From a virus (lineage: Duplodnaviria; Caudoviricetes), in IMG/VR virus record IMGVR_UViG_2565956520_000001: 64,000 nucleotides of DNA; one strand, 5' to 3'. The notes under the pieces are model-generated. The model was not told the origin of the DNA and searched no databases. It saw only the letters and a list, made by a program, of their open reading frames with translations. Shown here in pieces: positions 4,503-37,907 of this stretch. How positions within the stretch are numbered: the first letter of the stretch is position 1; the number at the start of each line of letters is the position of its first letter. The position numbers and the translations under genes are program-made.

Positions 4503-4513
4503 GTTAATTCTCC

Positions 4514-16475: not shown

Positions 16476-16482
16476 TTCGGTA

Positions 16483-19218: not shown

Positions 19219-19221
19219 AGG

Positions 19222-19689: not shown

Positions 19690-19864
19690 GGATATATTCC
19701 TCTTCCAAAGATAGCCGCTATCTGTAGTAGATAGAACTTCACTCCGGTGCTATTTTGTCTTTGCTATAGTTAATCCGATCTTTGACATTGCCCTTCAGAG
19801 TCTCCTTCTGATAATGAATCAAACAACAAATAAATTTATAATTTAATCAGAAGGAGAACCCAAG

Positions 19865-20065
19865 ATGTTCACTATTAAAACCTGTCCAATTACAGAAAAA
19901 CAAATCAATGTAATTGGGGCCAGATTTATAAGCAGCTGCAACGAAACCAACTGTAAGTTCCACCATGAAGGAGTATGCGTTCTGGTCCACAGTTTCATCG
20001 TTGAAAGAAATAATGAACAGCGACTTGATGAAATCGAAAGAAAACTCGGAAGAATCAGCCGCTAA
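19865..20065 (+). CDS. Small Cys/His-containing hypothetical protein
   Basis: AAGGAG RBS; CPIT..C...C.FH...C. Confidence 0.5.
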   Translation: MFTIKTCPITEKQINVIGARFISSCNETNCKFHHEGVCVLVHSFIVERNNEQRLDEIERKLGRISR

Positions 20066-20261
20066 CGGTTTTGTCGGAGTCGGGATTAAACTTAGTTGAA
20101 CGGTACAACCCGACTCTTTCCCCTTCAAATGCACTTCTGACATATTCAATTGCAGCATCAAGTTCTGCGAAACTTAGTCCACTTGCCGAACCAATCATTT
20201 TTGCAGCAACTTCTTTGGCACGGACTTCCTCTTCATCACTCAAATGGATAAGCGGTAGCAT
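20055..20261 (-). CDS. Small hypothetical protein
   Basis: AAGGAGG RBS before ATG 20261. Confidence 0.5.
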   Translation of the reverse strand: MLPLIHLSDEEEVRAKEVAAKMIGSASGLSFAELDAAIEYVRSAFEGERVGLYRSTKFNPDSDKTVSG

Positions 20262-20435
20262 CTTTCCTCCTTCACTTTTAACAGGACGTACGAGCCCCGT
20301 TATCATCATATTTTTTAGGCTCCCTCTCCCGACATTCACACTCACCGCACGACAAAGGTGGGTCATGAGTGTGTTTAATATGGTATAGAGGGCAGTCTTC
20401 GTTGCAGATTTGGAATTGATGGGATGGAGGGAACA

Positions 20436-20666
20436 CTAGTGCGCCTCCATTAATGAAGCCTCAGAAGGCAAAGGAAATTTTTCGGGATAAGCGATATGTT
20501 GCGCTAATCGAACAACTGTAGAATCTGCTCGATTTGTGGATTTGATACGACGAAAGGATGCAGGATGGATTGATAGCGCATTGGCTACATTATCCCTGCC
20601 TAACTTTCTCTCTAACTGGGAGATCAATTCTAGTGTAAATGGTTCGCTTCGTTTCATAGAGTTCAA
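20436..20666 (-). CDS. Cro-like HTH protein
   Basis: GRDNVANALSIHPASFRRI HTH; divergent from repressor; first gene of replication operon. Confidence 0.65.
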   Translation of the reverse strand: MNSMKRSEPFTLELISQLERKLGRDNVANALSIHPASFRRIKSTNRADSTVVRLAQHIAYPEKFPLPSEASLMEAH

Positions 20667-20688
20667 AATAGAACCATTGGCTCCATTT
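20666..20688. promoter_or_regulatory. Operator copy 1 at the cro start
   Basis: AAATAGAACCATTGGCTCCATTT, two mismatches to the 22532-22554 copy. Confidence 0.75.
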
Positions 20689-20743
20689 TGTAAAGAGAAA
20701 TTTGAACAATGACACTTACACCTTTATATGATGATTAATAATA

Positions 20744-21052
20744 ATGAATAGTGAACTACTTGAAAGAATTATTGTGGATGAATTTGCCCAAATAGCTAAA
20801 GATCAAGGTATTCATAAAACCAAGGTCGGACGGAAAGCATTTGGCGACAGCGAATCTGGCAGTAAAAAATGGATATATATCCTTGAAGGTAGAAAGGACC
20901 GACGCCCACAATCTCTTACAATTGCTGACATGTCAGATCTTTGTAATGCGTTAGGTGTTCCTATTGAATCAATTATGTTTAATGCTATTCAACGCTGTAA
21001 AAATGAAGTGCAAGAGTTGGCTAATACCCAGCAAACGAAGAAATCAGCTTAA
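20744..21052 (+). CDS. Putative immunity repressor (XRE HTH, no S24 peptidase domain)
   Basis: Divergent from cro-like gene; PQSLTIADMSDLCNALGVPIE; lies between operator sets. Confidence 0.65.
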   Translation: MNSELLERIIVDEFAQIAKDQGIHKTKVGRKAFGDSESGSKKWIYILEGRKDRRPQSLTIADMSDLCNALGVPIESIMFNAIQRCKNEVQELANTQQTKKSA

Positions 21053-21174
21053 AGCTTATATATTCGTCTGGCACGGCTATTCGACTAAAAAACAAGAATC
21101 ATTATAATGGCCCAGCTACAAACCAGACTAGAAAACTATTAAATTTCTATATTGACTCGACTAAAGGCGGTGTA

Positions 21175-21188
21175 TAGTGGTATCACTA
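21175..21188 (+). promoter_or_regulatory. Putative HicB operator over the hicA promoter
   Basis: TAGTG-N4-CACTA inverted repeat overlapping TATAGT; TTGACT at 21152 (spacer only 15 bp). Confidence 0.45.
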
Positions 21189-21203
21189 AGTGATGGCATT
21201 GAG

Positions 21204-21467
21204 TTGAACACGAAAAATAGAAAGCTACTTGCTAAACTTTTTCGACAACCAAAACCTAAAGATATTAAGTACCAAGAGGTTGAAAGACTACTACTCGGCC
21301 TTGGAGCAATAAAAAGTGAGAAAGCCGGAAGCAATGTTGCTTTTTTCTATAACGGACATATCACACAGCTCCACATTCCGCACCCGGACCCAACATTTTG
21401 CGGGGGGCGGATAAAAGCCATAAAAGAGTACTTAATTACAGCGGGAGTCGTAAATGAAAACATTTGA
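21204..21467 (+). CDS. hicA: HicA family toxin
   Basis: KDIKYQEVERLLLGLG..GS.V.F...HIPHP; TTG start inferred from family length. Confidence 0.88.
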   Translation: MNTKNRKLLAKLFRQPKPKDIKYQEVERLLLGLGAIKSEKAGSNVAFFYNGHITQLHIPHPDPTFCGGRIKAIKEYLITAGVVNENI

Positions 21468-21954
21468 ATACAAGACCTACACAGGCCAAATTGAGCCAGA
21501 CACAGAACAAGACATTCTGTATGGTAGAATACTCAATATTAATGATGTTGTTGATTTCCAAGGCACAACCATTTCAGAAGCAAGAAAAGCATTTGAGGAA
21601 TCAGTAGATTCCTATCTTGAGGTATGCAAAGAATTTGGCAAAGAACCAGATAAGCCTTTTTCTGGAAAAACAACATTAAGAATGGGGACTGATCTTCATA
21701 AAAAACTAAATAAGGCTTTCATAACAGGTGGATATAAAAGCTTAAACAGCTATATAGTTACAGCCCTTGAAAAAAATCTTGAGGAAGAACAGCGAGGAAA
21801 TCTCGAATGTTCCAAGTGTAAACACAGTGCCGCAATAAACGAAATGCAAAGTCAAATTTTCAAGTTCAAAACGGCATTTACAAGCATACCTTCAAGCTCA
21901 GCCCCAAACCTCCTCGTTACAGACGACAAAGGTTGGAGCAACTCGATACAATAA
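21454..21954 (+). CDS. hicB: HicB family antitoxin with ~50-aa C-terminal extension
   Basis: YKTYTG..D....YGRI..I.D...FQG.T..E...FEESVD.YL..C...GKEPDKPFSGK..LR..LH..SLNSYI. Confidence 0.92.
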   Translation: MKTFEYKTYTGQIEPDTEQDILYGRILNINDVVDFQGTTISEARKAFEESVDSYLEVCKEFGKEPDKPFSGKTTLRMGTDLHKKLNKAFITGGYKSLNSYIVTALEKNLEEEQRGNLECSKCKHSAAINEMQSQIFKFKTAFTSIPSSSAPNLLVTDDKGWSNSIQ

Positions 21955-22398
21955 ATGAGGCATAAGATGAACCCCATAAGCACCATATTCACCATTATAG
22001 ACTTGAATTACAAAACATATGAACTCAAATCGGCAACTTACACTGGCCAAAATGATATAAGTACTAAATTTAGAATAAATAAGACCAGCAACCTAATATC
22101 CGTGAGACTCACCTACACAACGGCTGAAAATGCATTCCCCTTTTTCTTGAATACAACAGGAGAACTTACAAGTCAGTATAAAAAATTAGGCAATGCAAAC
22201 CAAATAGTAGAAAGCTTAATAACAGTACTGATACCCATTTTGTATGACAACATAAGAGCTACAATTGGATCATTGACACTCATTGGAGGTCATCAAGCTT
22301 TTTTAGGTGCATCACGCTCTGAGATCATTGCAAACCACTCAACACCTGACCACAAAAAACTCCTAAAGCAACAAGCAACCCAAATGCTCAAGTCATAA
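21955..22398 (+). CDS. SecB-like chaperone (candidate third gene of a TAC module)
   Basis: 147 aa, beta-rich N-terminus, LIPILYDNIRATIGSLTLIGG resembles the SecB helix motif; abuts hicB stop. Confidence 0.65.
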   Translation: MRHKMNPISTIFTIIDLNYKTYELKSATYTGQNDISTKFRINKTSNLISVRLTYTTAENAFPFFLNTTGELTSQYKKLGNANQIVESLITVLIPILYDNIRATIGSLTLIGGHQAFLGASRSEIIANHSTPDHKKLLKQQATQMLKS

Positions 22399-22420
22399 CT
22401 ACCCCTCACGAATTCAACTT

Positions 22421-22451
22421 AGAAACCCCCGCCCCCGCGGGGTTTTCTTTT
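22421..22451 (+). terminator. Intrinsic terminator closing the hicAB-secB-like operon
   Basis: AGAAACCCCCGC..GCGGGGTTTTCTTTT hairpin plus U tract. Confidence 0.7.
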
Positions 22452-22498
22452 GCCCAATTACCAGTGTAATCCCCACAGATAGCAAAACTGCCCCATGT

Positions 22499-22555
22499 AT
22501 TTTGAGCCAATGGATCTATTTTTATGTTGACAAATAGATCCATTGGCTCTATTTT
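22499..22555 (+). promoter_or_regulatory. Early promoter (TTGACA-17-TATTTT) flanked by operator copies 2 and 3
   Basis: Perfect 18-bp inverted repeat 22504-22521/22532-22549 around TTGACA at 22527; each half belongs to a 23-bp palindrome. Confidence 0.8.
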
Positions 22556-22762
22556 TAATTCTACACAACGACCACAAGACCAAACGCACCGCGCGAAACA
22601 TCCGGAACAAGTACGCCTTGAATCAACGTGTGAATTGATTTTCAAATTATTCGAAGTCTGTGAAGGACTGCATAGATACAGATACCTCCTCACAACTTGG
22701 GTGTGCCGGAAACTCCCCTTTCCGGCCTCCTCACAGGCTTCGAACAAGAAAACGGAGATAAG

Positions 22763-23002
22763 ATGTGCCTACATGTAATCTTTCACCGCACAGTCACCTT
22801 TGAAGCGACATGCACTTATTGCGGCGCACATGAATGGCTGACCACTGAAAAGGCAGTGACGAAGTTCACCAAAGACCACGCAGACTGCAACAAGCTTTAC
22901 GAGGCCGAGTATGAGCAATCCTTATGTGAATTACGAATTGGCGAAAATACAGAAGCAACTTCAAGAATTGCGCCCACACATGACGAACAAAGGCATGTGT
23001 AA
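22763..23002 (+). CDS. Small early protein with CxxC
   Basis: GGAG RBS; CTYCG..H..C. Confidence 0.5.
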   Translation: MCLHVIFHRTVTFEATCTYCGAHEWLTTEKAVTKFTKDHADCNKLYEAEYEQSLCELRIGENTEATSRIAPTHDEQRHV

Positions 23003-23114
23003 AATTGGCGGATTAATAGTGGAACTTACGGACTTGCAGAACTTTGCGGCTCCGCAGGATCAATACCCGACAGACGAAAACAACTGTCATCGCGGGTTTC
23101 ATCACAACAGGTAG
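22911..23114 (+). CDS. Small early hypothetical protein
   Basis: ORF in co-oriented early operon. Confidence 0.4.
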   Translation: MSNPYVNYELAKIQKQLQELRPHMTNKGMCKIGGLIVELTDLQNFAAPQDQYPTDENNCHRGFHHNR

Positions 23115-23122
23115 GAGTAACT

Positions 23123-23437
23123 ATGTCAGAATTAAAAATCATAGATTTGTTCATCATCTGTCACGAATGCCGCAAGGTTTTCACTGGCAAAAATATAACC
23201 CTCAACACCCCTTGCCCTGATTGCGGAACAACCGACTTCGCATACATCAAAGCTGAAGGCATTGTGGATGCCGTTGAAAACGAAATGGCCCTTGAAGCTA
23301 TCCTTGCTCACTCAAACTGTGCCGTAGTTCACGAAGTTGCAAATGTAATGGGCTACTCGGAATCCGGCGGCAGAGATTCGCGTAATAACGACAGCCATTT
23401 GAAAAACCTGAAAGAATGGCTTGAAGATCAGGAGTAA
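23123..23437 (+). CDS. Zinc-ribbon early protein
   Basis: AGGAG RBS; CHEC..CPDCG. Confidence 0.6.
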   Translation: MSELKIIDLFIICHECRKVFTGKNITLNTPCPDCGTTDFAYIKAEGIVDAVENEMALEAILAHSNCAVVHEVANVMGYSESGGRDSRNNDSHLKNLKEWLEDQE

Positions 23438-23439
23438 CC

Positions 23440-23724
23440 ATGTATCGCGCAGAAGATTTTATCAGAAACTGCCCACTGCTGAAAGAAGGTGGCGTTGTGA
23501 ACAGACTAAATAAAGCTAAAGCCCTTAATCCTTTTAATGCCAAAAAGGTTGCAAACCTTGGGTGTAGTTCCAGCGAAAAGGCTTGTCTGAATTTCGCTCT
23601 CACCCTCTATAATCCCGGCAACTATCCTTTTGAAATAGGAAAACTTCTTATCAACGTTTCCGACCAACCGACACTTGATCATGTTGCAGAATGGATTCGT
23701 AAGGGCAGTCTAGGGCTGGACTAG
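23440..23724 (+). CDS. Early hypothetical protein
   Basis: AGGAG RBS; tight packing. Confidence 0.55.
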   Translation: MYRAEDFIRNCPLLKEGGVVNRLNKAKALNPFNAKKVANLGCSSSEKACLNFALTLYNPGNYPFEIGKLLINVSDQPTLDHVAEWIRKGSLGLD

Positions 23725-23731
23725 ATAGGCC

Positions 23732-23950
23732 ATGTTGAAAGCAGGACTGCGAGTGCAGGTTAAAACAAGCATCCGGAGACGGTCATACCTAGCATATGTT
23801 GATAGGCTCGACCCTCGCGGCTTTTGGGTAGGATTCAAAATTGTAAATGGACGCATGAATAAAACAAGGCTCTGCATATTCAGACCTAAACATGTAACCG
23901 CTATAGAAACCGAAGCTGGTTTGCGGTGCGTTTTACAGGAAACTTTATGA
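23732..23950 (+). CDS. Early hypothetical protein
   Basis: Stop overlaps next ATG. Confidence 0.45.
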   Translation: MLKAGLRVQVKTSIRRRSYLAYVDRLDPRGFWVGFKIVNGRMNKTRLCIFRPKHVTAIETEAGLRCVLQETL

Positions 23951-24465
23951 AAAAAGAAATCAAAGAAAGATACAAGATTAAAGGCTTTGATTATGAGGTC
24001 GATGAAAAAGGCCGCGTGTTCAGCACTAAGCACCATCCCGGTTACGGCATAGGCTGGCAGATGATGCCCACTAAGCCGGGCTTAACTCGTATTCCGCAGT
24101 ATACCCTGCGCCGAGACGGTGAAAGTTTCGTTTTCCGTATTGATTTACTGGTAGATAAATATTTTGATTCAACCGAAGTTTTTGACGGCAATTGGTTCCG
24201 CAAAATGCGCTCAGAATCTAAAAAGCATAAAGCCCTAATGCGCGCGACATTCCTTGAAGAGAAAAGACAGACGAAGGAAGCAGGAAAGGCACTAGTAAGA
24301 CCTACGCCTGAAACGGATATTATCATTGAACAAAAGTCAGCTCCAAACACTTACATACCTTGGTCGAACACAGAACAGCTTATAGAAAATTGCCGTTTTG
24401 ATGAAAGCTACTCTGCCGCAATTGGTGGAGATTCAAGAGACGCTCAAATGTGCCCACTTAGATAA
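23947..24465 (+). CDS. Early hypothetical protein (NUMOD4-like N-terminus possible)
   Basis: IKGFDYEVDEKGRVFS resembles NUMOD4; no HNH motif seen. Confidence 0.45.
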   Translation: MKKEIKERYKIKGFDYEVDEKGRVFSTKHHPGYGIGWQMMPTKPGLTRIPQYTLRRDGESFVFRIDLLVDKYFDSTEVFDGNWFRKMRSESKKHKALMRATFLEEKRQTKEAGKALVRPTPETDIIIEQKSAPNTYIPWSNTEQLIENCRFDESYSAAIGGDSRDAQMCPLR

Positions 24466-24477
24466 GGACAATTCACC

Positions 24478-24876
24478 ATGAATCTTACAAGCACCCTGCA
24501 ATCCCACTTAGGCCGCCGCTATTCTGCCGAAGACGTCGCAACAGCATTTGCGAAATCTAAAAACTGGGTCTATAGAAATGCAACCGCTATCGGCGGTGTT
24601 CGCATGGGAAAAGAATGGGTGTTCTTTGAAATAAACATGGTCAATTGCCTCACCAGAGGAACAGACGATGCCAATACAGCGAAAAAACAAGACCACGCAG
24701 AAGAAGGAATGGTTCGGAAGGATAACCTTGCCGAATGGAAAGCAGAAAGAAAAGAAAGCTTCGACCAAAAAGGAAGCGTTGGATTGGGAATGTATGATGA
24801 GGCAGAGGTTGAGCGAATTATCAGCGACCCCGACCCTTTCAATCTCATTACACAGTCTCACCACCAGACACCTTGA
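24478..24876 (+). CDS. Excisionase-like HTH protein overlapping integrase start
   Basis: YSAEDVATAFAKSKNWVYRNA..GGVRMGKEWVF winged-HTH pattern. Confidence 0.65.
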   Translation: MNLTSTLQSHLGRRYSAEDVATAFAKSKNWVYRNATAIGGVRMGKEWVFFEINMVNCLTRGTDDANTAKKQDHAEEGMVRKDNLAEWKAERKESFDQKGSVGLGMYDEAEVERIISDPDPFNLITQSHHQTP

Positions 24877-25804
24877 AGCACAAGTAGCCAAAGGAATCAG
24901 CGAAAGTTGGTTTCAGGATAAAAAGCTTGTGCTTAAGGAACTTCTAAACGCTTCTGGTGTAAAGCCCTTTCAACCTGCGGTTAATCTTGAACACGAAACC
25001 GTCCGCAAATTCCTTGATAAAATTGCCACGCTAAAAACGGGGCATAGGGCCAACAGATACCGCCGCCATATTCTTAGAATGTGGTCATGGGGCAAGACGG
25101 CCCGACTTATATCCGGCGAGTGCCCTTGGGATGTTGAGAAATACAAAGAAGTGCGGAACCCTCGTTATATCCCTTCTGAAGACGACTTCTGGAAGGTGTA
25201 CGAAATAGCTGATCAGGTTCCGGACGGTTCAAGCCACAGAACAGGTGTTTACAATTCTGAGCCGCACCGTAAAACGATCCTGCTTACATTCCTTCATACA
25301 GCCGCCAGAAAATCAGAGATATTTGATCTCAAAAAAGAAGACCTCGACTTATCAGCCCGTAAAATACGTTTATGGACTGCCAAGCGTGACGGCGGCGTGG
25401 AATATGATTGGGTTCCAATGACTGGAATTCTGCACGATGAGCTTGAAAAGCACCTTGCCCGGCAAAAGCTTGAATTCCCATTCACGGATTACGTGTTCGT
25501 GAACCCTGCAACCGGACTCAATTATTCCAGCGTAAGCAAAATGATGGAAAGATTGTGTAAACGGGCTGGAGTAAAGCATTTTGGCTTCCACGCTATCCGA
25601 CACCTCACCGCGTCGATTCTAGATAGCAAGATGGTGCCTATGGCTGATATTCAGGCCATACTACGGCACAAGTCTATGGAAGTGACCGCAAAGTACGTTC
25701 ATTCCATAAGAGGCGCGCGCGTTGAGCTGGATAAGGTGTTTGGAACAGGCAAAGTGATTCAGTTTGAGGACATAAAAAAAGCCCCCGCAAAAGCGGAGGC
25801 TTGA
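24668..25804 (+). CDS. int: Tyrosine integrase of left prophage
   Basis: HTAARKSE, HAIRH, LRHKS..VTAKY catalytic motifs; adjacent to att. Confidence 0.95.
   Translation: MPIQRKNKTTQKKEWFGRITLPNGKQKEKKASTKKEALDWECMMRQRLSELSATPTLSISLHSLTTRHLEAQVAKGISESWFQDKKLVLKELLNASGVKPFQPAVNLEHETVRKFLDKIATLKTGHRANRYRRHILRMWSWGKTARLISGECPWDVEKYKEVRNPRYIPSEDDFWKVYEIADQVPDGSSHRTGVYNSEPHRKTILLTFLHTAARKSEIFDLKKEDLDLSARKIRLWTAKRDGGVEYDWVPMTGILHDELEKHLARQKLEFPFTDYVFVNPATGLNYSSVSKMMERLCKRAGVKHFGFHAIRHLTASILDSKMVPMADIQAILRHKSMEVTAKYVHSIRGARVELDKVFGTGKVIQFEDIKKAPAKAEA
25774..25802 (-). terminator. Hairpin terminator at integrase 3' end, U tract on minus strand
   Basis: A7-GCCCCCGC-AAAA-GCGGAGGCTT. Confidence 0.55.
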
Positions 25805-25834: not shown

Positions 25835-25876
25835 TTACAACCGACTCACTATTTAGCTCTAAACCCTTGAAATAAT

Positions 25877-25925
25877 TGGTGGGCAATACAAGATTCGAAC
25901 TTGTGGCTTCCAGCTCCGGAGGCTG
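25877..25925 (-). tRNA. 3' fragment of tRNA-Arg(CCG), att core; not an intact tRNA
   Basis: Minus strand reads CAGC-CTCCGGA-GCTGG..ACAAGTTCGAATCTTGT-ATTGCCC-ACCA (anticodon arm, T arm, acceptor 3' strand, CCA); no D arm or 5' strand upstream. Confidence 0.88.
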
Positions 25926-26028
25926 TTTTCGCAGTTGTTTCACACATAGCACTCAAGTCAATATCCACTCTATTCATTAATATTATTGATTTTATTTCAA
26001 AGACATTGTTTACTGAATCTACGAGCAA

Positions 26029-26077
26029 GGGTAGCATTTGGGTAGCAATTCCGCATTTGGGTAGCATTTGGGTAGCA
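26029..26077 (+). repeat. GGGTAGCA x4, as two copies of GGGTAGCATTTGGGTAGCA; putative arm-type sites of right integrase
   Basis: Copies at 26029, 26040, 26059, 26070, directly before the integrase ATG. Confidence 0.75.
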
Positions 26078-26082
26078 AAAAA

Positions 26083-27189
26083 ATGATCCGTATTAAGACA
26101 AGATATATTGGCGTTTATCATAGAGAATCTGACACTCGTAGGTTCAGAGGAAAGCCTGACATTTGCTATGAGATAACCTACAAGCTTAAGAACCGCAAAA
26201 AGATATGGGAAAAGATCGGCTGGAAAAGTGAAGGCTTTTCCGCTGTCATGGCCAACAACCTGCGCAGTGAGCGTTTGGTGAAAATTAAGACCGGAACTGT
26301 CTCGGTTATCATCAACATTACATATGCAAAAGCATGGCAAAATTATTGCGATAGACATTTGACCGAAGGAAAATCTAAGGCCACCGACATATACCGTCAT
26401 AACAAGCATATTGAAAACACTCTCGGACACTTCAGGCTGGATCAAATAACACCGGACATTCTCCAAACCTTCATGAATCGTTTGTCGGACACACTCAGTC
26501 CGCAGAGTGTTAAACATGTCCTTGCCCAGGTCAGAAGAGTCATCAACAAGGCCATTAAGTGGGGCCACTGGGACGGAGTAAACCCTGTCACTAGAATCAC
26601 AATGCCCACTATCAATAATAGTAGAACACGATACTTCACACCTAATGAAGCAGCTCAAGTGCTTGAAGAGCTCCAATACCGCAGCCCTCAAACACATTCC
26701 ATGGCCACCGTCAGCCTCCACACCGGGATGAGATTCGGAGAGATCGCAGCTATTCGCTGGGCAGATGTAAATTTTGATGCCGGAACCATCTCTATTTTTG
26801 ACGCCAAAACAGGTGATAGACACGCCTTGATGACTGACACCGTTAAGAAAATGCTTTCTGATATGCCCAACAAAGTTCCAAGCGATTACCTTTTCTTTTC
26901 TAGAAAAGGCGACAAGATAAAAGCAGCCAGCCCCACCTTTGAGCGAGTTGTAAATGAACTCGGGCTTAATGCCGACATAACTGATCGACGCCAAAAAATT
27001 GTATTTCATTCTCTTAGACACACCTACGCCTCCTGGATGGCAACTAAAGGAATCCCGCTTTATGTTATCGCAGAACTGCTTGGCCACAGTACTTTAGAAA
27101 TGGCCAGCCGCTATGCTCACCTCTGCCCTGACCAAAAACGAGAAGCCTCAAACATGGTGCAGGAAGTTTTCAACTCGGCTGGTCAATAG
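26083..27189 (+). CDS. int: Tyrosine integrase of right prophage
   Basis: HTGMRFGE, HSLRH, LGHS..MASRY catalytic motifs; N-terminal arm-binding domain. Confidence 0.95.
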   Translation: MIRIKTRYIGVYHRESDTRRFRGKPDICYEITYKLKNRKKIWEKIGWKSEGFSAVMANNLRSERLVKIKTGTVSVIINITYAKAWQNYCDRHLTEGKSKATDIYRHNKHIENTLGHFRLDQITPDILQTFMNRLSDTLSPQSVKHVLAQVRRVINKAIKWGHWDGVNPVTRITMPTINNSRTRYFTPNEAAQVLEELQYRSPQTHSMATVSLHTGMRFGEIAAIRWADVNFDAGTISIFDAKTGDRHALMTDTVKKMLSDMPNKVPSDYLFFSRKGDKIKAASPTFERVVNELGLNADITDRRQKIVFHSLRHTYASWMATKGIPLYVIAELLGHSTLEMASRYAHLCPDQKREASNMVQEVFNSAGQ

Positions 27190-30390: not shown

Positions 30391-30780
30391 ATGAAAGACT
30401 TTATAGGAGATGGCTTCCCAGAACGCCTTCAACAGATCATAGATTCTAAAGAATGGAACAAGGGTGAATTTGCCAAAGTAGGTGATGTTACAGGAAAAAG
30501 TATGTCCACTTATGTTGGTGGTACTGCTTTGCCTAAAGCGAAGACTTTGGCGAACTGGGGTACTTTTGCAGATATAAGTATTGATTGGCTGCTGCTTGGC
30601 CGTGGTGAAATGTACTATTCTAAAAGAGCTAAAGAAGAATTAGATCCTATAATTCGCAGAATCCACGAAACACGGAAAGTTCTTGAAGAGCTAGGGGCAG
30701 ACCCTGAAACCATCCAACAAGCGATTCTGAACATCACTAAAAGCTCAGGTGATGAGCTTCAAGAAAATTTCGCGAGTTAA
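30391..30780 (+). CDS. XRE-family immunity repressor
   Basis: ERLQQI..KGEFAK..STYVGG..P...ISIDWLLLGRGEM; divergent from cro-like gene. Confidence 0.82.
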   Translation: MKDFIGDGFPERLQQIIDSKEWNKGEFAKVGDVTGKSMSTYVGGTALPKAKTLANWGTFADISIDWLLLGRGEMYYSKRAKEELDPIIRRIHETRKVLEELGADPETIQQAILNITKSSGDELQENFAS

Positions 30781-30793
30781 AGAAAAAAGAATA

Positions 30794-30840
30794 CCCCTTC
30801 TGGTTCAAAGGATTGTTTGGACCGGAGGGGGAAATTTTTT
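30794..30840 (+). terminator. Long hairpin after repressor
   Basis: CCCCTTCTGGTTCAAA / TTTGGACCGGAGGGG followed by T run. Confidence 0.55.
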
Positions 30841-30962
30841 AGGATTTGATATAGGTAGTTGGATTGAAATATGGAATAAGCATTGACAATTATAAGTATA
30901 ATGACTCTAACAAAATTGAAATTGAAAACAATTATTTTTACATTCTAACATACACAAATACT

Positions 30963-32552
30963 ATGAAATCAATACAAGTTGAAAATCTAAAAAGTCTTGT
31001 CAAAACACCTAAAATTGAAATTAAACCTATTACTATTCTTGTTGGCAAAAATAGCAGTGGGAAAAGCACCTTTTTAAGAACCTTCCCACTTTTTAAACAG
31101 AGCGTAGAGGAAAACATAAAAGCTCCAATACTTTTTTGTGGAAACTATGTAGATTTTGGTGAATTTGGTGAAATCAGAAATAAGAGCACTAAAAATGATT
31201 CTATAACATTCACTATTGAATCAGAAATTGATCAAAAATCGCTACTAAATAATGCTTATAGATATAGTTTTAACTTAAGCAAATTTATGGATCAAAATAG
31301 TAATGAAATTCTTCCTATAAAATTCATATCAAAAATAAAAAACAAAGTAAAAAATGTCCGTAATACTTATTTAGAATCTTTTAAAATATCTATAGCAGAC
31401 CAGAATTTAGACTTTAAATTTGACGAAGACTCGAAGTTGATTGATCTCAATATTAATGATGAAAGCTTTAAAGATTTTTTAGCTGACATATATAGTACAA
31501 ATTCTGGATTAGTACCGAATCTCATAACTAAAATATCCTTAGATAAAAATTACATATACAGCCATAGCTGGGTCTTTCCGCAATTCCAGGAACAATCTCG
31601 TTACGAACGCTTGGTGAAAATAATTAAGAAACACGTCTATAATACAACTAGTGATGAAAATATTGCCGACATTGTGCGCTCCATATCAATCGGATCCAAA
31701 TCTTTCACCTTATCAAGCTGTAAAAACGATTTTCTAAAAACTAAAACTTGGATTAAAAAAGCTAAAACGTGGACTACCGATTCCAAAGAATTTCAAAGCG
31801 TTAACAATGCTTTATTGTTTGAAAATTTTATGAGTATGGTAAATTTTATTGGTAACCATTTTAAATTATACTCTCAAAGAATTAACTATATAAGTCCTTT
31901 TAGAGCTTCTCCAGAAAGGTACTATCGCCATCAAGAATTAGCTGTCCATAACATAGATCCGCAAGGTAAAAATACAGCAATATTCCTTGACAATCTAACC
32001 AACAGGCAAAAAAAGAATTTAGAAGAATGGACCGACAACAATTTTGATATAAAACTTAAAACAACATACAAATCAGGTCATCTTTCTATTGAACTTAAAG
32101 AGAATAAATCTGATTTTTACATAAATATTGCTGACATAGGATTTGGTTATTCTCAACTTCTGCCTATTATTATCCAACTTTGGTTCAAAACTACTAAAGA
32201 TCATAAAGACATAATCTTTGAAACTGGATACGAAACATTCGCTATTGAGCAGCCAGAGTTGCACCTACACCCTAAAATGATAGGTCATTTTACGGATTTA
32301 CTAGTAAAACTGATATCTTCAAATCATTTAAAAGAAACAAATATAAAACTAATTATCGAAACTCATAGCAAGTCACTTATTAATAGAATTGGTCAACACA
32401 TAGCTAAAAAAAACATTACTCCTGACTCAGTAAACGTAGTTATATTCGACAATAAAAACGGCTACGAATCAAACATAGACATTGCCAAATTCAATGATAA
32501 AGGAATGTTAAATAACTGGCCTGCTAATTTCTTTCTTCCGGAGCGATTTTAA
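30963..32552 (+). CDS. ABC-type (AAA_15/AAA_21) ATPase with DUF3696-like C-terminus
   Basis: GKNSSGKS Walker A, IGFGYSQLLP signature, IEQPELHLHP Walker B/D-loop, IIETHS H-loop, terminal NWPANFF. Confidence 0.88.
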   Translation: MKSIQVENLKSLVKTPKIEIKPITILVGKNSSGKSTFLRTFPLFKQSVEENIKAPILFCGNYVDFGEFGEIRNKSTKNDSITFTIESEIDQKSLLNNAYRYSFNLSKFMDQNSNEILPIKFISKIKNKVKNVRNTYLESFKISIADQNLDFKFDEDSKLIDLNINDESFKDFLADIYSTNSGLVPNLITKISLDKNYIYSHSWVFPQFQEQSRYERLVKIIKKHVYNTTSDENIADIVRSISIGSKSFTLSSCKNDFLKTKTWIKKAKTWTTDSKEFQSVNNALLFENFMSMVNFIGNHFKLYSQRINYISPFRASPERYYRHQELAVHNIDPQGKNTAIFLDNLTNRQKKNLEEWTDNNFDIKLKTTYKSGHLSIELKENKSDFYINIADIGFGYSQLLPIIIQLWFKTTKDHKDIIFETGYETFAIEQPELHLHPKMIGHFTDLLVKLISSNHLKETNIKLIIETHSKSLINRIGQHIAKKNITPDSVNVVIFDNKNGYESNIDIAKFNDKGMLNNWPANFFLPERF

Positions 32553-32553
32553 A

Positions 32554-33693
32554 ATGATTTTTGAAATTGACTCCAGCATATCTGATTTTCTTAAAAATGA
32601 GACCGGAAATCGTGATTTAACCATGAAATGTTTAAAGAAGGTCGAGGCTCTTCTATTAAATGCTAGCGATGGAAAAAATGTTATCTTTTTTGAAGATATT
32701 GAAATTATAGAATCATTAATTGACTGCGGAAAATTTTCAGAACCGACGGGTTATTTCCTTGAATACCTAAGAGAAAACTTTGCATCTACAGGATCATTTA
32801 TAGAATTAACAAGTAGACACATCAAAATTGTTTTAGAATGTGAACCCGAAATCATTATTAACGACAAAAATCATACTGTAGTAACATTACCTATTTTTAA
32901 ACTCGATCAATCTTTTTTTGGTAAAAGCGTGCTGCTAACAGAAAATCTGGTAGACGGTAAATTTTATAAGAGAATGACACAGTGTTATTGCAAAAATTAC
33001 GGACAAAATATAGATTTTGATTTTGAACTAAAACATGGCGGTGGCAACAGCACAGGGACAGTATTTAAAGAAACTTTTAACAATCAAGATAAAAATTGCT
33101 TATGCATTGTTGATTCTGATAAATCTCACCCCGAATGTAACTTTAAAGAAACGGCTAAATCAGTTTTAGACGAGCATAACAATTCAGATTTAGCTAAATT
33201 TATATCCGACTTCTACATCTTAGAAGTAAAAGAGGCTGAAAATTTGATCCCAACGGAAGTCATCGAAAAAGTAATCGATCCTCAACAAACTGATAATTTT
33301 AATACTTATAAAAGTTTAAGTAACGAGGGCGCACAATTTTTTGACTGCAAAAAAGGAATTAATCGACGGTCTTTTTCAAAAAATAGAGATCAACTTCATC
33401 TCGAGTTTTGGAGAAAAGAGCTTGAAGGAATTGATCCAAATGCAAATGACTTTTTATCCCAAATTGCCAATAAACCTGCGGGTTGCATGACAAACTGTAC
33501 AGGTTGCCTTAATAGAAATTGCAAGCAACCTTACTGCGGAGGAATTGGAAGCAAAATCTTAGATAACTCTATTGATATAATCAATAATGACGAACAATAC
33601 TCATTACGCGAGAATATTCAAAAAGAATGGGAAACCATTGCTAAGAAAATAATTACTTGGTCAATTGTTCAACCAGAATATCGATTTTCATAA
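32554..33693 (+). CDS. OLD-like TOPRIM nuclease candidate
   Basis: LLTENLVD, HGGG, CIVDSDK (DxD), EAENLIP motifs in TOPRIM order; 1 bp after the ATPase stop. Confidence 0.68.
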   Translation: MIFEIDSSISDFLKNETGNRDLTMKCLKKVEALLLNASDGKNVIFFEDIEIIESLIDCGKFSEPTGYFLEYLRENFASTGSFIELTSRHIKIVLECEPEIIINDKNHTVVTLPIFKLDQSFFGKSVLLTENLVDGKFYKRMTQCYCKNYGQNIDFDFELKHGGGNSTGTVFKETFNNQDKNCLCIVDSDKSHPECNFKETAKSVLDEHNNSDLAKFISDFYILEVKEAENLIPTEVIEKVIDPQQTDNFNTYKSLSNEGAQFFDCKKGINRRSFSKNRDQLHLEFWRKELEGIDPNANDFLSQIANKPAGCMTNCTGCLNRNCKQPYCGGIGSKILDNSIDIINNDEQYSLRENIQKEWETIAKKIITWSIVQPEYRFS

Positions 33694-33729
33694 ATTTTTA
33701 AGAAATAATACGAGAAATACTATCCATAT

Positions 33730-34425
33730 CTAGCGATTAAATTCAAACGGATCAGGAACATTCTCATAGAACACCTGTTCCAGCTCATGCAGATCAACTT
33801 TGAAATATTCTCTTTTGCGGTTAATTCTGCAAGCATCTAGTTTGACATGAAGTAACTGTTCGGTCTGGAATGGCTCCATGCACTTAAAATAAAACTCAAC
33901 CTTAAAAGGCATAGGGACTCCTGTCCCACTCCCGTCACGGCCTTTGTACAGATCTTCTGCTCTTCTATGTGGACAATGCTTTGTATATCCAACTTTATAC
34001 AATCCCGGCATTGCGGGATTAGAAAGGCAATACACACAGCCCTCATATTCAATTTCACGCCACGCGCTAGGGGTAAAAACTTGCCGTGCAGTTGGAGTAA
34101 AAACGACATTTTTATTTGTAAGCAGTTTTGGTTTTACAATGTCATCCTCTACAGCCTTTCTCTCCTGAATATTCACATCAGGCATACTTCGGTTGACTGA
34201 AACAGGAAAAAACCTTGATTCAAGATGGTTATAGCTTTTAAAGTATCCCCACAAAACCAAGATAACCCCAACAATTTCGGCAATGGATTCAAACCCCTGA
34301 CCTAGCAATGGAGTAATTATCAAGTCTGATATATTTACCCCGAATATCAAACCACAATATATTGCAAAGACAAAACCACATACTCCAAAAATCCAGTCCC
34401 ATAATAACTTAAAAAAATAGCGCAT
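33730..34425 (-). CDS. Membrane-anchored T5orf172/MUG113 (GIY-YIG superfamily) protein
   Basis: Two N-terminal TMs; GCVYCLSN..PGLYKVGYT..R..L..GVP.PF..EQLLH..L...R....REYF. Confidence 0.82.
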   Translation of the reverse strand: MRYFFKLLWDWIFGVCGFVFAIYCGLIFGVNISDLIITPLLGQGFESIAEIVGVILVLWGYFKSYNHLESRFFPVSVNRSMPDVNIQERKAVEDDIVKPKLLTNKNVVFTPTARQVFTPSAWREIEYEGCVYCLSNPAMPGLYKVGYTKHCPHRRAEDLYKGRDGSGTGVPMPFKVEFYFKCMEPFQTEQLLHVKLDACRINRKREYFKVDLHELEQVFYENVPDPFEFNR

Positions 34426-34517
34426 TATAGCAGTCCTTTACACCGAGAATACTCACAAGATTGTATGCCAACAAGAACCTATTTTTAAACAATATTCACC
34501 ATAATCAGCAAGACAAC

Positions 34518-34552
34518 AAAAAAAGCCGGAACGCACGACGGCAGTTCCGGCT
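34518..34552 (-). terminator. Intrinsic terminator downstream of the Hailong-like operon
   Basis: AGCCGGAAC/GTTCCGGCT 9-bp stem with U tract on minus strand. Confidence 0.6.
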
Positions 34553-34695
34553 ATATCTTTATTAAGATATATTTCAATACCATCAACACATAAAGCGGCA
34601 ATAGTTAAAGACTCTACATCATACACTCAAAAAGACTTTCCGACTCACATGAAACACACTGAATATTCATTTCATAATACTTGAGTGATTTACAA

Positions 34696-34998
34696 TTAAT
34701 TTTCTGAACAAAAGTAGTCTTCTAATCCTTCAATCTGCCTATTCACTGCATTTTCAAGTTCAACATACTCACCAGTTATCTGCTGCTGACTTTGGTTCGC
34801 CAAAAAAAGAAGACTGCTAGATAATCCTTGAATCAACAAGACCAATTTGTCGTTTTGATCCAATTTATTCTTTAGCACCCACCTAGAAATTGAATTCTGC
34901 GACAAACCAAAAAGAGGTTCGCTGCTATCTAAAAAACGATCATTAATGATCGTTAAAACACACCGTTGTTTATTAAGACGACTTTTAAAATCACCCAT
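34696..34998 (-). CDS. 100-aa helical protein, third gene of the Hailong-like operon
   Basis: 8-bp overlap with NTase stop; GGAGG RBS. Confidence 0.7.
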   Translation of the reverse strand: MGDFKSRLNKQRCVLTIINDRFLDSSEPLFGLSQNSISRWVLKNKLDQNDKLVLLIQGLSSSLLFLANQSQQQITGEYVELENAVNRQIEGLEDYFCSEN

Positions 34999-35620
34999 AA
35001 AAACTATCTACCTCCTTTATCAATCTTCTCATCCAATCATCAACGATAGGTAAAGAATCAATCGTTTCACAAATCAATTCTCTAGATGGAACACTTCCTA
35101 CCCCACGAACACTAAGAATCCGTGCAGACTGTAAGCATTCATATGCGTTCTTGGAAATGATCAAACTTTTTTCAGCCAACTCCAAAGCCGAATTTCTCGA
35201 AAAAGTTGGTTTAGTACCTAAGGCCAACGAATAGCAAGTTGCTAGATTCCTTACTGCCAAAAAAAGCGTTGAAAGCTCAAACACCTGACTATTAGTTATT
35301 TTTACAGTAGCCCTAGCAACTTCGAAAATATTGTAGAATTTCCTACAATCACTTATCGAAGAAGTATATTTATTCGGCATGCCCAAAGACTCAATGTAAT
35401 CTATACCATCTTCTGAATACAACAGCCTAGATTCATAATAAAGATGCCATGCAAAAGGATTTCCTTGCTTCCAAAGTAATTTAATTTTTTCCGGTGAATA
35501 GATAGAAAATGTTAGCGGATCAATGCGAGACAAATTAGTGTCTACAATGGCCAACAAATCAATATCAGAACTTAAATCAATTTCACCTCGACAGACTGAC
35601 CCAAAAGCATAAATGTGCAT
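34991..35620 (-). CDS. halB: Nucleotidyltransferase, Hailong HalB-like
   Basis: FGS..RG....SDIDLL Pol-beta motif; helical C-domain; penultimate Tyr (SFYG*); paired with pentapeptide/TM gene. Confidence 0.78.
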   Translation of the reverse strand: MHIYAFGSVCRGEIDLSSDIDLLAIVDTNLSRIDPLTFSIYSPEKIKLLWKQGNPFAWHLYYESRLLYSEDGIDYIESLGMPNKYTSSISDCRKFYNIFEVARATVKITNSQVFELSTLFLAVRNLATCYSLALGTKPTFSRNSALELAEKSLIISKNAYECLQSARILSVRGVGSVPSRELICETIDSLPIVDDWMRRLIKEVDSFYG

Positions 35621-35621
35621 T

Positions 35622-36437
35622 TTATCTTTTATTAAACCTTTTAAGAATTATTGACATAAAAAATCCAAACATAACTAGTCGAACGAATTTTATCACTGTT
35701 AAGGATACAGAACTATAGCTTTTAGGGGAGAATGTGCCTAAAAATATTTGTGGAGCCACCTCCACCGACTCCCATAATTCAGAAACGAGTTTTGATTCGG
35801 TATGATATATAAAATTAAAAAAAGCGATGCTCACGAACACCAGCCCCACAGCTCTACACAATTTATATGTACTTTCACCATTTCCCCAAATAAAATCTAA
35901 GCTAATAAAATTAACATAGCTCATAAAAGATTTTAGACGAGCAAAGCCTTTATATTTTCTCCTATAGTAAGACTCTTTAGAAAGACATGACTTACGTAGA
36001 TGAACCTTAGTAGATTCTAGTTCTATCTTTATTGCCTTATTAACTGACTGGACTTCGCCCAGAGATTGATAATTTTTACGTAAAGTTCGTGCAAATGAAC
36101 TTTTTAAATTATCATATGCAGGACAACATACATCAAGAATTTCACTAGTGATAATTGTTTTATCAAAGTAAGAATAATCAAAAGAGCATCCTTCAAACGT
36201 GCTACCATTAAAATTTGAATTAATAAAACGACATCCAGTAAAATTACATGAATCAAAATTGCAATTTCTTAGATACGAAGAATCAAATATACAGTATTTG
36301 AAATCAACTTCTTTAAAAGTTTTCCCCTTTACAACTAGCCGCAAAAATAATTTATTAGCTAAATCTATATTTGCAAGATCCTCATTTATTTTTTTATCTG
36401 TTTCAATAATCCTATCGCTATCGGTTAGAATATCCAT
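35622..36437 (-). CDS. halA: Pentapeptide-repeat plus 2TM/pore effector, Hailong HalA-like
   Basis: VDFKYCIFDSSYLRNCNFDSCNFTGCRF pentapeptides; WGNGE then TM-pore helix-TM. Confidence 0.78.
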   Translation of the reverse strand: MDILTDSDRIIETDKKINEDLANIDLANKLFLRLVVKGKTFKEVDFKYCIFDSSYLRNCNFDSCNFTGCRFINSNFNGSTFEGCSFDYSYFDKTIITSEILDVCCPAYDNLKSSFARTLRKNYQSLGEVQSVNKAIKIELESTKVHLRKSCLSKESYYRRKYKGFARLKSFMSYVNFISLDFIWGNGESTYKLCRAVGLVFVSIAFFNFIYHTESKLVSELWESVEVAPQIFLGTFSPKSYSSVSLTVIKFVRLVMFGFFMSIILKRFNKR

Positions 36438-36516
36438 AATCTATTTAAGCCTTGATTTAGATGTTAAAATCAACCTTTCTTTTAAGAAGAACTAACCTGT
36501 TATAATAAAATCAACT

Positions 36517-37242
36517 CTATAATTTATCAACATTAAGAATAGAATATAAATCAATTTCTTTTGGATCTAAACCTGCGAGATGCAAAGCAATCTGAGCCTT
36601 AACAACAGCAGAAATATCCTTATTTTCAATACTCTCAACTAAACATTGAGATTTCAACATTTGATTATCAGACCTCAACCTATCGTAAAGAGCAGTTGCT
36701 CTTTCTCTAGTTTGCTCAGACTGTTTAAAGAATAACAGCGCAACACCATCAATTACAACTCCAGGCATAATTTGCATATAGCTACTAAAAACATCTGGTG
36801 AAATTAATGCTGCTTTATAGATTATCAAAACAAAACCAACAGTAGCAGCTACTACACTAAACCAAAATTGAACTTTAGCTTGAGCAAGAGCCTGATGATG
36901 ATAACCTTTAACAAGATCTTGAATAACCCTTCCGTCATAATTGAGCGTTTCATTAACTCCTCGCCCCAACTCGCTGGATCTATTCAAACCAGCCCTTCCC
37001 CCAGCAGCCATACCGCAACCGGCCACTTCCCCACTACTAAAGTCATCAGTTTTTTTTACCTTTAAAACTTGGGATTTTGCCTTCTCAGCAATGCTTTCTA
37101 TCTCGTCTTCTTTCTCTTTTTGTTGCTTTCGATAAAATGAAGAGAGTAGAGAAGTTACTAGTCCTAAGACAGCAGATATCAATCCAGCCATAATTGTTAC
37201 AACAGATTCAGATGCTAGCGAAGCGACTATATCCAAGCTCAT
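36517..37242 (-). CDS. Membrane protein with TRADD-N-associated-like 2TM domain
   Basis: YHHQALAQAKVQFWFSVVAATVGF..VALLFFKQS...RERAT.LYDRL; extra N-terminal TM. Confidence 0.65.
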   Translation of the reverse strand: MSLDIVASLASESVVTIMAGLISAVLGLVTSLLSSFYRKQQKEKEDEIESIAEKAKSQVLKVKKTDDFSSGEVAGCGMAAGGRAGLNRSSELGRGVNETLNYDGRVIQDLVKGYHHQALAQAKVQFWFSVVAATVGFVLIIYKAALISPDVFSSYMQIMPGVVIDGVALLFFKQSEQTRERATALYDRLRSDNQMLKSQCLVESIENKDISAVVKAQIALHLAGLDPKEIDLYSILNVDKL

Positions 37243-37313
37243 AATTTAATATCCTGCTTAACTTTGTTTAACTTTATTATTCATATAAAAATATTACATA
37301 CAAAGTCAAATAA

Positions 37314-37369
37314 TCACTTCCCGATCACCCGTCTCACAACCAAATTCCGCTTCTCCAAAAGCCCATCAA
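37314..37369 (-). pseudogene. Relic copy of the last 17 codons of the giant gene
   Basis: Reads DGLLEKRNLVVRRVIGK*, versus DGLLEKRNLVVRRVMK* at 37908-37960. Confidence 0.85.
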
Positions 37370-37371
37370 GC

Positions 37372-37415
37372 AAAAAAAGGCCGAAACCACCCAAGAAAGG
37401 ATAGTTCCGGCCTTT
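37372..37415 (-). terminator. Intrinsic terminator after the 120-codon membrane ORF
   Basis: AAAGGCCGAAAC/GTTCCGGCCTTT stem with U tract on minus strand. Confidence 0.6.
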
Positions 37416-37496
37416 TAAATTTCTTTTACTAAACTCAATCAAGCACAAAAATGAAGTTCTTCACACGTCCGCAAATATAATTACACTAGGATATTG

Positions 37497-37856
37497 TCAT
37501 ACCTTCACTTGCTTCTTTCTTAACTTCAAAACCCCTGCTCCAAATTCTATTTCTTCATAATCTTTATATAACGCAACAAGAACAGTCACCCCTATAGCTA
37601 CAGCTGGTATTATTGCGGCTATTTCCATGCCAGATAAAGCGGCAACCGAAGTGACCGCTGCAGCTCCAATCGGGCCTGTTAATGCGGCAACACCTCCAAG
37701 ACCCAACATTGCAGCAATGCCTGCGGCACCAACTAATGCAATTTTTTTTGTACTATGAAGCTTGTCAGCGAATTCACCATAAACGATGATTTGATCGGCT
37801 CCACTACTCATAGCTTCTTCAAGTTCTTCTTTCGTATAAACTACAACTTCTTCCAA
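37497..37856 (-). CDS. Small Gly/Ala-rich membrane protein
   Basis: AAGGAG RBS before TTG 37856; glycine-zipper-like hydrophobic core. Confidence 0.65.
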   Translation of the reverse strand: MEEVVVYTKEELEEAMSSGADQIIVYGEFADKLHSTKKIALVGAAGIAAMLGLGGVAALTGPIGAAAVTSVAALSGMEIAAIIPAVAIGVTVLVALYKDYEEIEFGAGVLKLRKKQVKV

Positions 37857-37907
37857 AATAGCACTCCTTATATTCATAAATAAAAACAACTAAGCCTATT
37901 CAAACTA

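Follow-up and report, generated by a model that had tools for sequence, protein, structure and literature searches.

A prophage-borne three-gene cassette distantly related to the Hailong guard system

Introduction

Does the pair of HalA- and HalB-like genes carried by a prophage in the IMG/VR virus record IMGVR_UViG_2565956520_000001 (Duplodnaviria; Caudoviricetes) constitute a Hailong guard system with its priming tyrosine in place, as a first-pass annotation had claimed from the sequence? The pair was analyzed here within a stretch of 64,000 nucleotides (nt) of that record, referred to below as the window. Gene 1, encoding a HalA-like effector, and gene 2, encoding a HalB-like nucleotidyltransferase (NTase), are related to the Hailong genes, distantly but genuinely, by homology and by fold. 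They stand in a conserved three-gene synteny with a small gene 3, no terminal tyrosine is conserved in the NTase family, and the cassette is located in a prophage hotspot. The module belongs to a widespread and hitherto undescribed branch of the Hailong superfamily, and what is new about it is the third gene, the explanation of the terminal residue by codon overlap, and the prophage-hotspot context.

Hailong is a guard system of two genes, described in 2025 and present in about 70 genera (PMC13434031). HalB makes oligodeoxyadenylate (oligo-dA) primed by one of HalB's own tyrosine hydroxyls, and the resulting DNA sits between the HalA subunits and holds the channel closed (PMC13434031). The system is triggered when a phage 5'-3' exonuclease strips the DNA, leading to depolarization (PMC13434031). 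According to a 2026 paper, neither DefenseFinder nor PADLOC recognizes Hailong as yet (PMC13586616), and Rousset 2022 contains no mention of it. Our literature search found neither a description of a three-gene system nor any mention of "HalC".

Results

A third gene always follows the NTase gene

In the list of open reading frames (ORFs), the three genes follow one another in the same direction on the minus strand, and the single base 35621 lies between genes 1 and 2. The first-pass description, a pentapeptide-repeat and transmembrane (TM) gene followed after 1 nt by a minimal NTase ending SFYG, agrees with both the ORF list and Pfam. It was sound for genes 1 and 2 but stopped one gene short, leaving out gene 3.

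A scan of a genome collection with the NTase family gave 80 loci, distributed over Acidobacteriota, Cyanobacteria, Verrucomicrobiota, Planctomycetota, Chloroflexota, Saccharimonadales, and many Pseudomonadota. Gene 1 lies directly upstream of the NTase gene in 78 of these 80, from many phyla; the two loci lacking it are one at a contig end and one Vibrio locus with no upstream gene 1. The gap between the two genes was measured in 76 loci, and all but three of these (73) have a value from -4 to +7 nt. Because the same order recurs in 78 of 80 loci from many phyla, the pairing of gene 1 with the NTase gene is not due to chance. A homologue of gene 3 was found directly 3' of the NTase gene in 75 loci by tblastn and in the other five by direct reading of the ORFs, that is, in 80/80. 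The two-gene organization of Hailong therefore does not describe this system, since the third gene is always attached, and the first-pass reading of the locus as a two-gene Hailong operon has to be given up on this point.

The gene 3 proteins are 95-111 residues long and share the invariant residues F4, R7, Q11, R12, N19, L29, R39, W40, N44, S70, and Q71. The N-terminal motif reads xEFxxR...QR...VN and is followed by LSxxAIxRW, which resembles a helix-turn-helix (HTH) motif; a tyrosine, Y78, is conserved in 96% of the proteins within an acidic motif, SQEQ..x[ED]Y. Searching 1.84 billion representative proteins with the gene 3 profile retrieved 349 clusters (50% identity), the great majority of them stand-alone proteins of ~100 residues. 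A clean fusion of the NTase with gene 3 occurred once, in P0332, and two further proteins were messy chimeras. P0332, a metagenome representative of 325 residues, has the NTase at residues 1-208 and the gene 3 protein at residues 211-305; it may be a genuine fusion, or it may result from a frameshift where the two genes overlap.

Nothing significant was found for gene 3 in Pfam, PHROGs, NCBIfam, PADLOC, the PDB (profile search), or the ESM Atlas. A hidden Markov model (HMM) of gene 3 found the gene beside distant variants of the NTase (31-33% identity; L109-L111) and also at the loci L004 and L006, but gave no match in the two canonical-like Hailong loci examined (L112 and L113), nor in loci of the Hailong-like type that we found on contig 13 of the same genome (see below). 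Since gene 3 is present in 80/80 loci of the family and absent from the canonical-like loci, the unit is a strict three-gene system, distinct from published Hailong. Descent of gene 3 from a split-off HalB tail was considered and rejected at the sequence level, as there is no similarity between gene 3 and the HalB tail.

The start codon of gene 3 lies within the end of gene 2, and this overlap implies that the two proteins would be synthesized in a coupled manner. The gene 3 protein, a small partner encoded at every one of the 80 loci, is predicted to be made in step with the enzyme by way of the overlapping start codon.

Gene 2 has the fold and active-site residues of HalB

The solved structure nearest to the gene 2 product is HalB, by sequence and by fold. 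The references for Hailong were the PDB entries 9nyi, 9dbh, 9dbi, and 9dbj and the NCBIfam models NF051894 (HalA) and NF051895 (HalB), and the family libraries searched were Pfam, NCBIfam, PADLOC 2.0 (2023), and PHROGs. Pfam matched gene 2 weakly to the Pol-beta NTase families PF18765 and PF01909. The best sequence match in the PDB was HalB 9dbj, with an E value of 2.4e-5, or 3.4e-7 when the family profile was used, over residues 4-73 only. The top match in NCBIfam was likewise HalB (48.6 bits, E 7.3e-13), with residues 6-147 of gene 2 aligned on profile positions 5-147 of 211, and hhalign against canonical HalB returned a probability of 98% over only 69 N-terminal columns.

The AlphaFold2 (AF2) model of gene 2, with a predicted local distance difference test score (pLDDT) of 92, had HalB 9dbj as its top Foldseek match (E 2.8e-6). 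VIA-align superposed residues 1-199 of the model on residues 3-186 of 9dbj with Z 15.2 and a root mean square deviation (rmsd) of 2.9 Å over 175 residues. The best full-length fold matches other than HalB were aminoglycoside nucleotidyltransferases (ANT) at Z 8.9, while HEPN-domain chains reached Z 12.0 over the C-terminal half only. The model shows the elements of the HalB fold, namely a Pol-beta core, the GS...DxD site, and a helical second domain. In particular, gene 2 carries a GS...D19xD21 motif, a GNPFAWHL motif, and an HEPN-like helical domain; G7-S8 and D19/D21 align with the G, S, and D21/D23 of HalB, and R142 is kept, aligning with HalB R164 in a MAFFT sequence alignment only. Y85 is invariant both in the NTase family of gene 2 and in canonical HalB. 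The family comprises more than 1200 clusters at 90% identity, with members about 50% identical to the query.

We also considered the helical domain as an active HEPN RNase and rejected this, because the conserved residues do not include an Rx4-6H motif. In PADLOC, gene 2 gave only weak, partial NTase matches (PDC-S09, PDC-M05A), and gene 1 gave none.

Gene 1 has the architecture of HalA

The gene 1 protein begins with pentapeptide repeats (PF00805 at residues 25-97, E 1.3e-12 in Pfam), followed by a helical region of basic character and, at the C terminus, by a module of TM segment, short helix, and TM segment with the conserved motif SPQIFLG. The AF2 monomer model (pLDDT 86.6) places a beta-helix at residues 10-92 ahead of the helical region, and its helices at 190-212, 218-233, and 243-268 fit the TM-pore-TM layout noted in the first-pass annotation. 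The top NCBIfam match was HalA, at 25.5 bits and over residues 40-98 only, and the PDB profile search matched 9nyi with an E value of 9.6e-5 over the pentapeptide stretch only.

The likeness extends further in the predicted structure. The best Foldseek match of the model was HalA 9nyi_A, with an E value of 1.7e-8 over 309 columns, more than 3000-fold better than the second-ranked match. VIA-align placed model residues 7-270 on 9nyi residues 56-356 with Z 14.4 over 254 residues, and HalA was the sole solved chain that aligned to both the beta-helix and the TM part. The AF2 model of gene 1 therefore has the HalA architecture of a cytoplasmic pentapeptide "crown" joined to a TM channel domain. 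It differs from HalA in length, being ~70-100 residues shorter (338 positions in the NCBIfam model, 371 residues in the PDB chain), and nothing in it corresponds to the first ~55 residues of that chain.

The tyrosine near the end of gene 2 is the codon shared with the gene 3 start

The Hailong paper (Tan et al., Nature 2025) is said to place the priming tyrosine at the HalB C terminus, and the first-pass annotation took Y208 of gene 2 to be its equivalent. For comparison, canonical HalB sequences were required. Among about 800 genomes searched within the class and phylum, none had a canonical HalB (NF051895 above cut-off), and for this reason the set was recovered by a search with a 73-residue stretch of the PDB alignment plus one metagenome scan. 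The canonical HalB of Rhodobacteraceae bacterium QY30 and eight relatives have a tyrosine as the last residue or no more than six residues from the C terminus (9/9), and the two more distant two-gene loci from metagenomes, L112 and L113, retain a PY motif in the tail. The structural alignment with gene 2 stops at HalB residue 186 of about 227, which places the conserved HalB tyrosine on a tail of ~40 residues. On the gene 2 side the alignment runs through residue 199 of 209, so that a HalB-type tail is missing.

Although the query has Y208, a C-terminal tyrosine is not a feature of its family. A tyrosine within the last five residues occurs in 44 of 120 NTase clusters and within the last six residues in 19 of the 80 genomic loci, and none of the closest relatives of the query has one. 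In the gene 2 model, Y208 closes the last helix. The junction of genes 2 and 3 reads ...GAT AGT TTT TAT GGG TGA, and the ATG of gene 3 consists of the last two bases of TAT (Tyr208) and the first G of GGG; Y208 is thus exactly the NAT codon shared with the start of gene 3. Among the 50 loci in which gene 3 starts with ATG and overlaps the NTase gene by 8 to 62 nt (8-26 nt in all but one), the codon supplying the "AT" is TAT (Tyr) in 20, CAT (His) in 16, AAT (Asn) in 11, and GAT (Asp) in 3. None of the loci with a 4-nt overlap or zero overlap has a terminal tyrosine, and in every locus that has one, it is encoded by the NAT codon overlapping the gene 3 start. The terminal tyrosine of gene 2 is accounted for by the overlapped gene 3 start, which fixes a NAT codon at this position, and on the reading of these sequences Y208 is a footprint of that start codon and no conserved catalytic feature. 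The claim of a priming tyrosine in place is not upheld, given the minority of loci with a tyrosine, the NAT codon that overlaps the gene 3 ATG, and the missing ~40-residue tail.

Comparison with Hailong and with other systems

The cassette resembles Hailong in the order of effector then NTase, tightly coupled; in the two-domain NTase fold, the GS/DxD site, and the motif G(D/N)xFAxHL; in an effector that combines a pentapeptide beta-helix with a channel-type C terminus and can be matched to HalA from end to end; and in being carried as cargo of a mobile element or defense island. Unlike Hailong, it has an NTase without the ~40-residue C-terminal tail and without a conserved terminal tyrosine, as well as an obligatory third gene, for a protein of 100 residues, that is absent at L112 and L113.

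In the MNT-HEPN system (MntA-HepT, type VII), MntA AMPylates its partner protein on a tyrosine. Gene 2 shares with MNT-HEPN and with the kanamycin/ANT enzymes a minimal Pol-beta NTase with an HEPN-like four-helix domain (Z 8.9-12). It differs from MNT-HEPN in that the NTase and the helical domain are fused in one chain, which lacks the Rx4-6H RNase motif, and in that the partner toxin would be a membrane channel, where MNT-HEPN has an RNase.

The same genome contains a second, different Hailong-like locus on contig 13 (L001:335-2939, minus strand), and a locus similar to it occurs in genome G102 (L003). At L001, the first gene encodes a pentapeptide protein of 304 residues whose potassium-channel filter reads TTLGYG, and the gene that comes next, overlapping it, encodes an NTase of 307 residues; their top NCBIfam matches are HalA and HalB, at 48 and 77 bits, the HalB score being below the cut-off. 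The L001/L003 pair is like genes 1 and 2 in that a pentapeptide and TM protein precedes a HalB-like NTase. However, the L001 NTase has a long C-terminal extension compared with the 209 residues of gene 2, the effectors of L001 and the window align over the repeats only, and the third gene of L001 is not gene 3 but encodes an XRE-type HTH protein of 236 residues. Gene 3 showed no significant likeness to either the long NTase or the XRE protein of L001.

The cassette occupies a cargo slot of a prophage

The location on a prophage proposed in the first-pass annotation was confirmed. The right half of the window is a prophage with genes for a portal, a major head protein, a tail fiber, and an internal virion protein (PHROGs), and the operon lies in a low-GC slot (Table 1). 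The GC content of this island is 30-40%, compared with 45-50% in the flanks, and the island is bounded by an RstR-like repressor gene and by the 3' end, at 37908, of a gene for a polyvalent virion protein of 3500 residues.

Table 1. Features of the three-gene locus and its surroundings (positions in the window)
Feature	Positions	Strand	Remarks
Candidate sigma-70-like promoter	36502..36530	minus	TTGATA-17-TATTAT, 10/12; the region's best promoter-like site, just 5' of gene 1; consensus match only
Gene 1, HalA-like effector, 271 aa	35622..36437	minus	pentapeptide-repeat beta-helix and TM module
Gene 2, HalB-like minimal NTase, 209 aa	34991..35620	minus	ends ...DSFYG
Overlap of genes 2 and 3, 8 nt	34991..34998	minus	read from the sequence and the family-wide codon count
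Gene 3, 100 aa, matching no known family	34696..34998	minus	always directly 3' of the NTase gene
Low-GC cargo island, 7.5 kb	30391..37889	not assigned	contains the three-gene operon
ABC/AAA ATPase and PDC-M55B-type genes	30864..33693		probably a separate two-gene defense module
T5orf172/GIY-YIG-like gene	33730..34425		
TRADD-N-type membrane protein gene	36517..37242	minus	directly upstream of the operon
Repeat of virion-protein gene end	37314..37369		diverged copy of 37908-37960, inside the island
Second prophage	1..25804		
Integrase of second prophage	24668..25804		back to back with the next integrase
Integrase of island-bearing prophage	25849..27087		

Related prophages were present in 6 of 14 genomes of the same genus that were sampled. 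In four of them (L097-L100) the frame of int, par, and repressor genes is kept while the cargo of the slot differs, with defense-like matches in three: the low-GC cargo there includes a PifA/QatA-like NTPase of 1366 residues, a PDC-S20 protein, and a TIR-NLR-like protein. No Hailong-like genes were found in the slots of these four prophages. As related prophages hold other low-GC, defense-like cargo at this position, the slot behaves as a defense hotspot.

In the window, the operon has defense-like neighbors of the ABC-ATPase/TOPRIM and T5orf172 types (PADLOC, NCBIfam). The ABC/AAA ATPase, of 562 residues, has an N terminus like those of the retron Eco8 effector and MADS3 ATPases, and a protein of 379 residues matching PADLOC PDC-M55B follows it. 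The T5orf172/GIY-YIG-like protein, of 231 residues, has an N-terminal membrane segment (PF10544, E 2.3e-15; PADLOC PDC-S57, E 4.5e-22), and a copy with 46% identity is found in the cargo slot of the related prophage L098. The protein encoded directly upstream of the operon is a membrane protein of 241 residues with a "cyanobacterial TRADD-N associated 2-TM" domain (PF20712, E 2.1e-14). The diverged copy of the last bases of the 3500-residue virion-protein gene (88% over 53 nt) fits an exchange of cargo by recombination at the end of that gene. The second prophage in the window has genes for large and small terminase, a primase, a CII-like activator, and a HicB-like antitoxin.

Beyond this prophage the family is scattered. 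The HalB model at E <= 1e-10 matched none of the 24 other genomes sampled from the same genus and 3 of 331 in the family, and of these three only the locus L004 belongs to the three-gene family; such sporadic spread fits mobile cargo. In IMG/VR, the gene trio was also found on seven other viral contigs of prophage type. Two exact peptide patterns matched at least 150 species genomes. None of the INPHARED records of cultured phages had DNA like this prophage.

The first-pass annotation had also remarked that no exonuclease gene was visible in either prophage, in keeping with self-avoidance. Searches with the Pfam families YqaJ, 5'-3' exonuclease, and PDDEXK_1 gave no match on the contig of the window, with a lossy filter and an incomplete prophage, and no recombination genes were found among the ORFs scanned with PHROGs, again from an incomplete prophage. 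The island-bearing prophage is cut, as the window ends at the contig end. RNase_T (PF00929) gave no candidate in the whole of the 99.99%-complete genome G000. Bacterial genomes are expected to carry DnaQ-type exonucleases, and the RNase_T negative is probably a miss of the filter, which makes every negative from a family search run through this filter less reliable. Because RNase_T found none in a whole genome and the prophage is incomplete, these exonuclease negatives are weak.

Discussion

We favor, at somewhat better than even confidence, the reading that the three genes form an anti-phage module, brought along by the prophage as cargo, in which a HalA-like channel and a HalB-like NTase act as a Hailong-type guard. 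Function in defense, gating by a ligand, and any role of gene 3 are proposed here by analogy, on the grounds of homology and architecture. In such a module, gene 1 would be the membrane channel effector, and gene 2, as in Hailong, would constitutively produce the ligand holding it closed, either a nucleic acid or a nucleotide. Infection would remove or destroy the ligand, upon which the channel would open, the cell would be depolarized, and phage growth would stop. Gene 3, made in step with the enzyme, might supply in trans the role of the HalB tail or might regulate the operon.

Several observations weigh against this reading. Gene 1 at 25.5 bits does not reach the HalA equivalog cut-off of 250 bits (NF051894), nor does gene 2 at 48.6 bits reach the 190 bits set for HalB (NF051895). 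The likeness of gene 1 to HalA in sequence is limited to the pentapeptide repeats, and the superposition of the monomer model on HalA has an rmsd of 6.8 Å. The likeness of gene 2 to HalB in sequence is limited to the first ~70 residues, or ~147 with the NCBIfam model, and since the tail is missing, the product and the priming chemistry of gene 2 may differ from those of HalB. The 2023 release of PADLOC has no model for this NTase or system, and none of the INPHARED cultured-phage records contains the NTase. The Hailong-like identity given in the first-pass annotation, and the match to HalA and HalB by HMM and structure by which it was to be checked, therefore stand in part: HalA and HalB are the best solved-structure matches, but both proteins score below the NCBIfam cut-offs and the locus is not canonical. 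It is because the best matches in fold and sequence go together with scores far under the cut-offs that we regard genes 1 and 2 as genuine yet distant relatives of Hailong.

The alternatives differ chiefly in what primes the NTase and what gene 3 does. That the locus is an ordinary two-gene Hailong, in which Y208 is the self-priming tyrosine for oligo-dA synthesis, would suit the penultimate position of Y208, given that canonical HalB relatives end in ...PY or in Y plus 1-5 residues, and tyrosine is the commonest of the four residues at this position (20 of the 50 overlapping loci). Yet it is a minority residue among loci and clusters alike and is missing from the nearest relatives, the NAT codon alternates with His, Asn, and Asp codons, and the tyrosine never occurs where the overlap is 4 nt or none. 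Moreover, the HalB tail beyond residue 186 has no counterpart, gene 3 is obligatory, and the NCBIfam equivalog cut-offs are missed widely; we consider self-priming from Y208 improbable. A possible but doubtful alternative is that the gene 3 protein is an acceptor in trans, to whose Tyr78 the NTase would attach nucleotides or an oligo-dA chain, the adduct then holding the channel shut. This would parallel MntA-HepT, in which the partner of the MNT enzyme is AMPylated on a tyrosine, and AMPylated HEPN-MNT structures are among the fold neighbors of the helical domain. The tail in cis is missing in the clade that has gene 3, whereas the two canonical-like loci keep the tail and lack gene 3; Tyr78 is highly conserved within its acidic motif, the start-codon overlap implies coupled synthesis, and a rare natural fusion of the NTase and gene 3 exists in P0332. 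Against this, the idea is purely inferential, and gene 3 resembles neither the HalB tail nor any known protein. A single conserved tyrosine is nothing remarkable in a protein of 100 residues, the handful of fusions might be sequencing frameshifts, and the canonical comparison rests on two canonical-like loci. In the more specific form of this proposal, which we put forward tentatively and hold to be hardly probable, gene 3 would be a dedicated primer or carrier protein, and a protein-DNA conjugate on Tyr78, rather than free or enzyme-bound oligo-dA, would lock the channel.

It is rather unlikely that gene 3 is instead a small HTH-type regulator or adaptor, such as an autorepressor or a sensor of a phage protein. 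The NTase would in that case prime on some other residue (Y85, for instance) or on a free nucleotide, if it uses a primer at all. The conserved E-x-L-x-G-L-S-x-x-A-I-x-R-W looks like the part of an XRE-type HTH that spans the turn and the recognition helix, hhalign places this motif on the HTH of the L001 XRE protein, though not significantly (probability 1%), single members of the gene 3 family weakly match HTH families, and Y85 is the invariant tyrosine common to this family and canonical HalB. No HTH family is matched significantly, however, regulators are not usually encoded by the final gene of an operon with their start inside the gene before, and the 80/80 linkage together with the conserved extreme N terminus favors a structural partner. 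Finally, the cassette might not serve phage defense at all but act as a toxin-antitoxin-like addiction module or as a regulated ion channel in the physiology of prophage or host. The Hailong logic of a toxic channel and a protective enzyme is indeed formally a toxin-antitoxin arrangement (PMC12657230), but the slot otherwise holds defense-type genes, the neighbors of the operon are defense-like, the spread across phyla is sporadic and mobile, and the genes are homologous to a validated defense system, all of which make a role outside defense highly improbable.

A terminal residue may look "functional" and yet be only the footprint of a start-codon overlap, and annotation should take this into account. 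The branch is at least as widespread as Hailong, judging from the species genomes matched, the NTase clusters, and the 349 gene 3 clusters, and no model for it exists in the family libraries searched. It departs from Hailong at the point where the mechanism begins, the priming of the inhibitory DNA. If gene 3 is the carrier of the primed chain, the cassette would be a split, trans-primed Hailong and a new protein-primed, template-free polymerase pair. If gene 3 takes over priming or senses phage in some other way, guard systems can be split and rewired, and this cassette would offer a simple test bed for it, consisting of three genes and a toxicity read-out.

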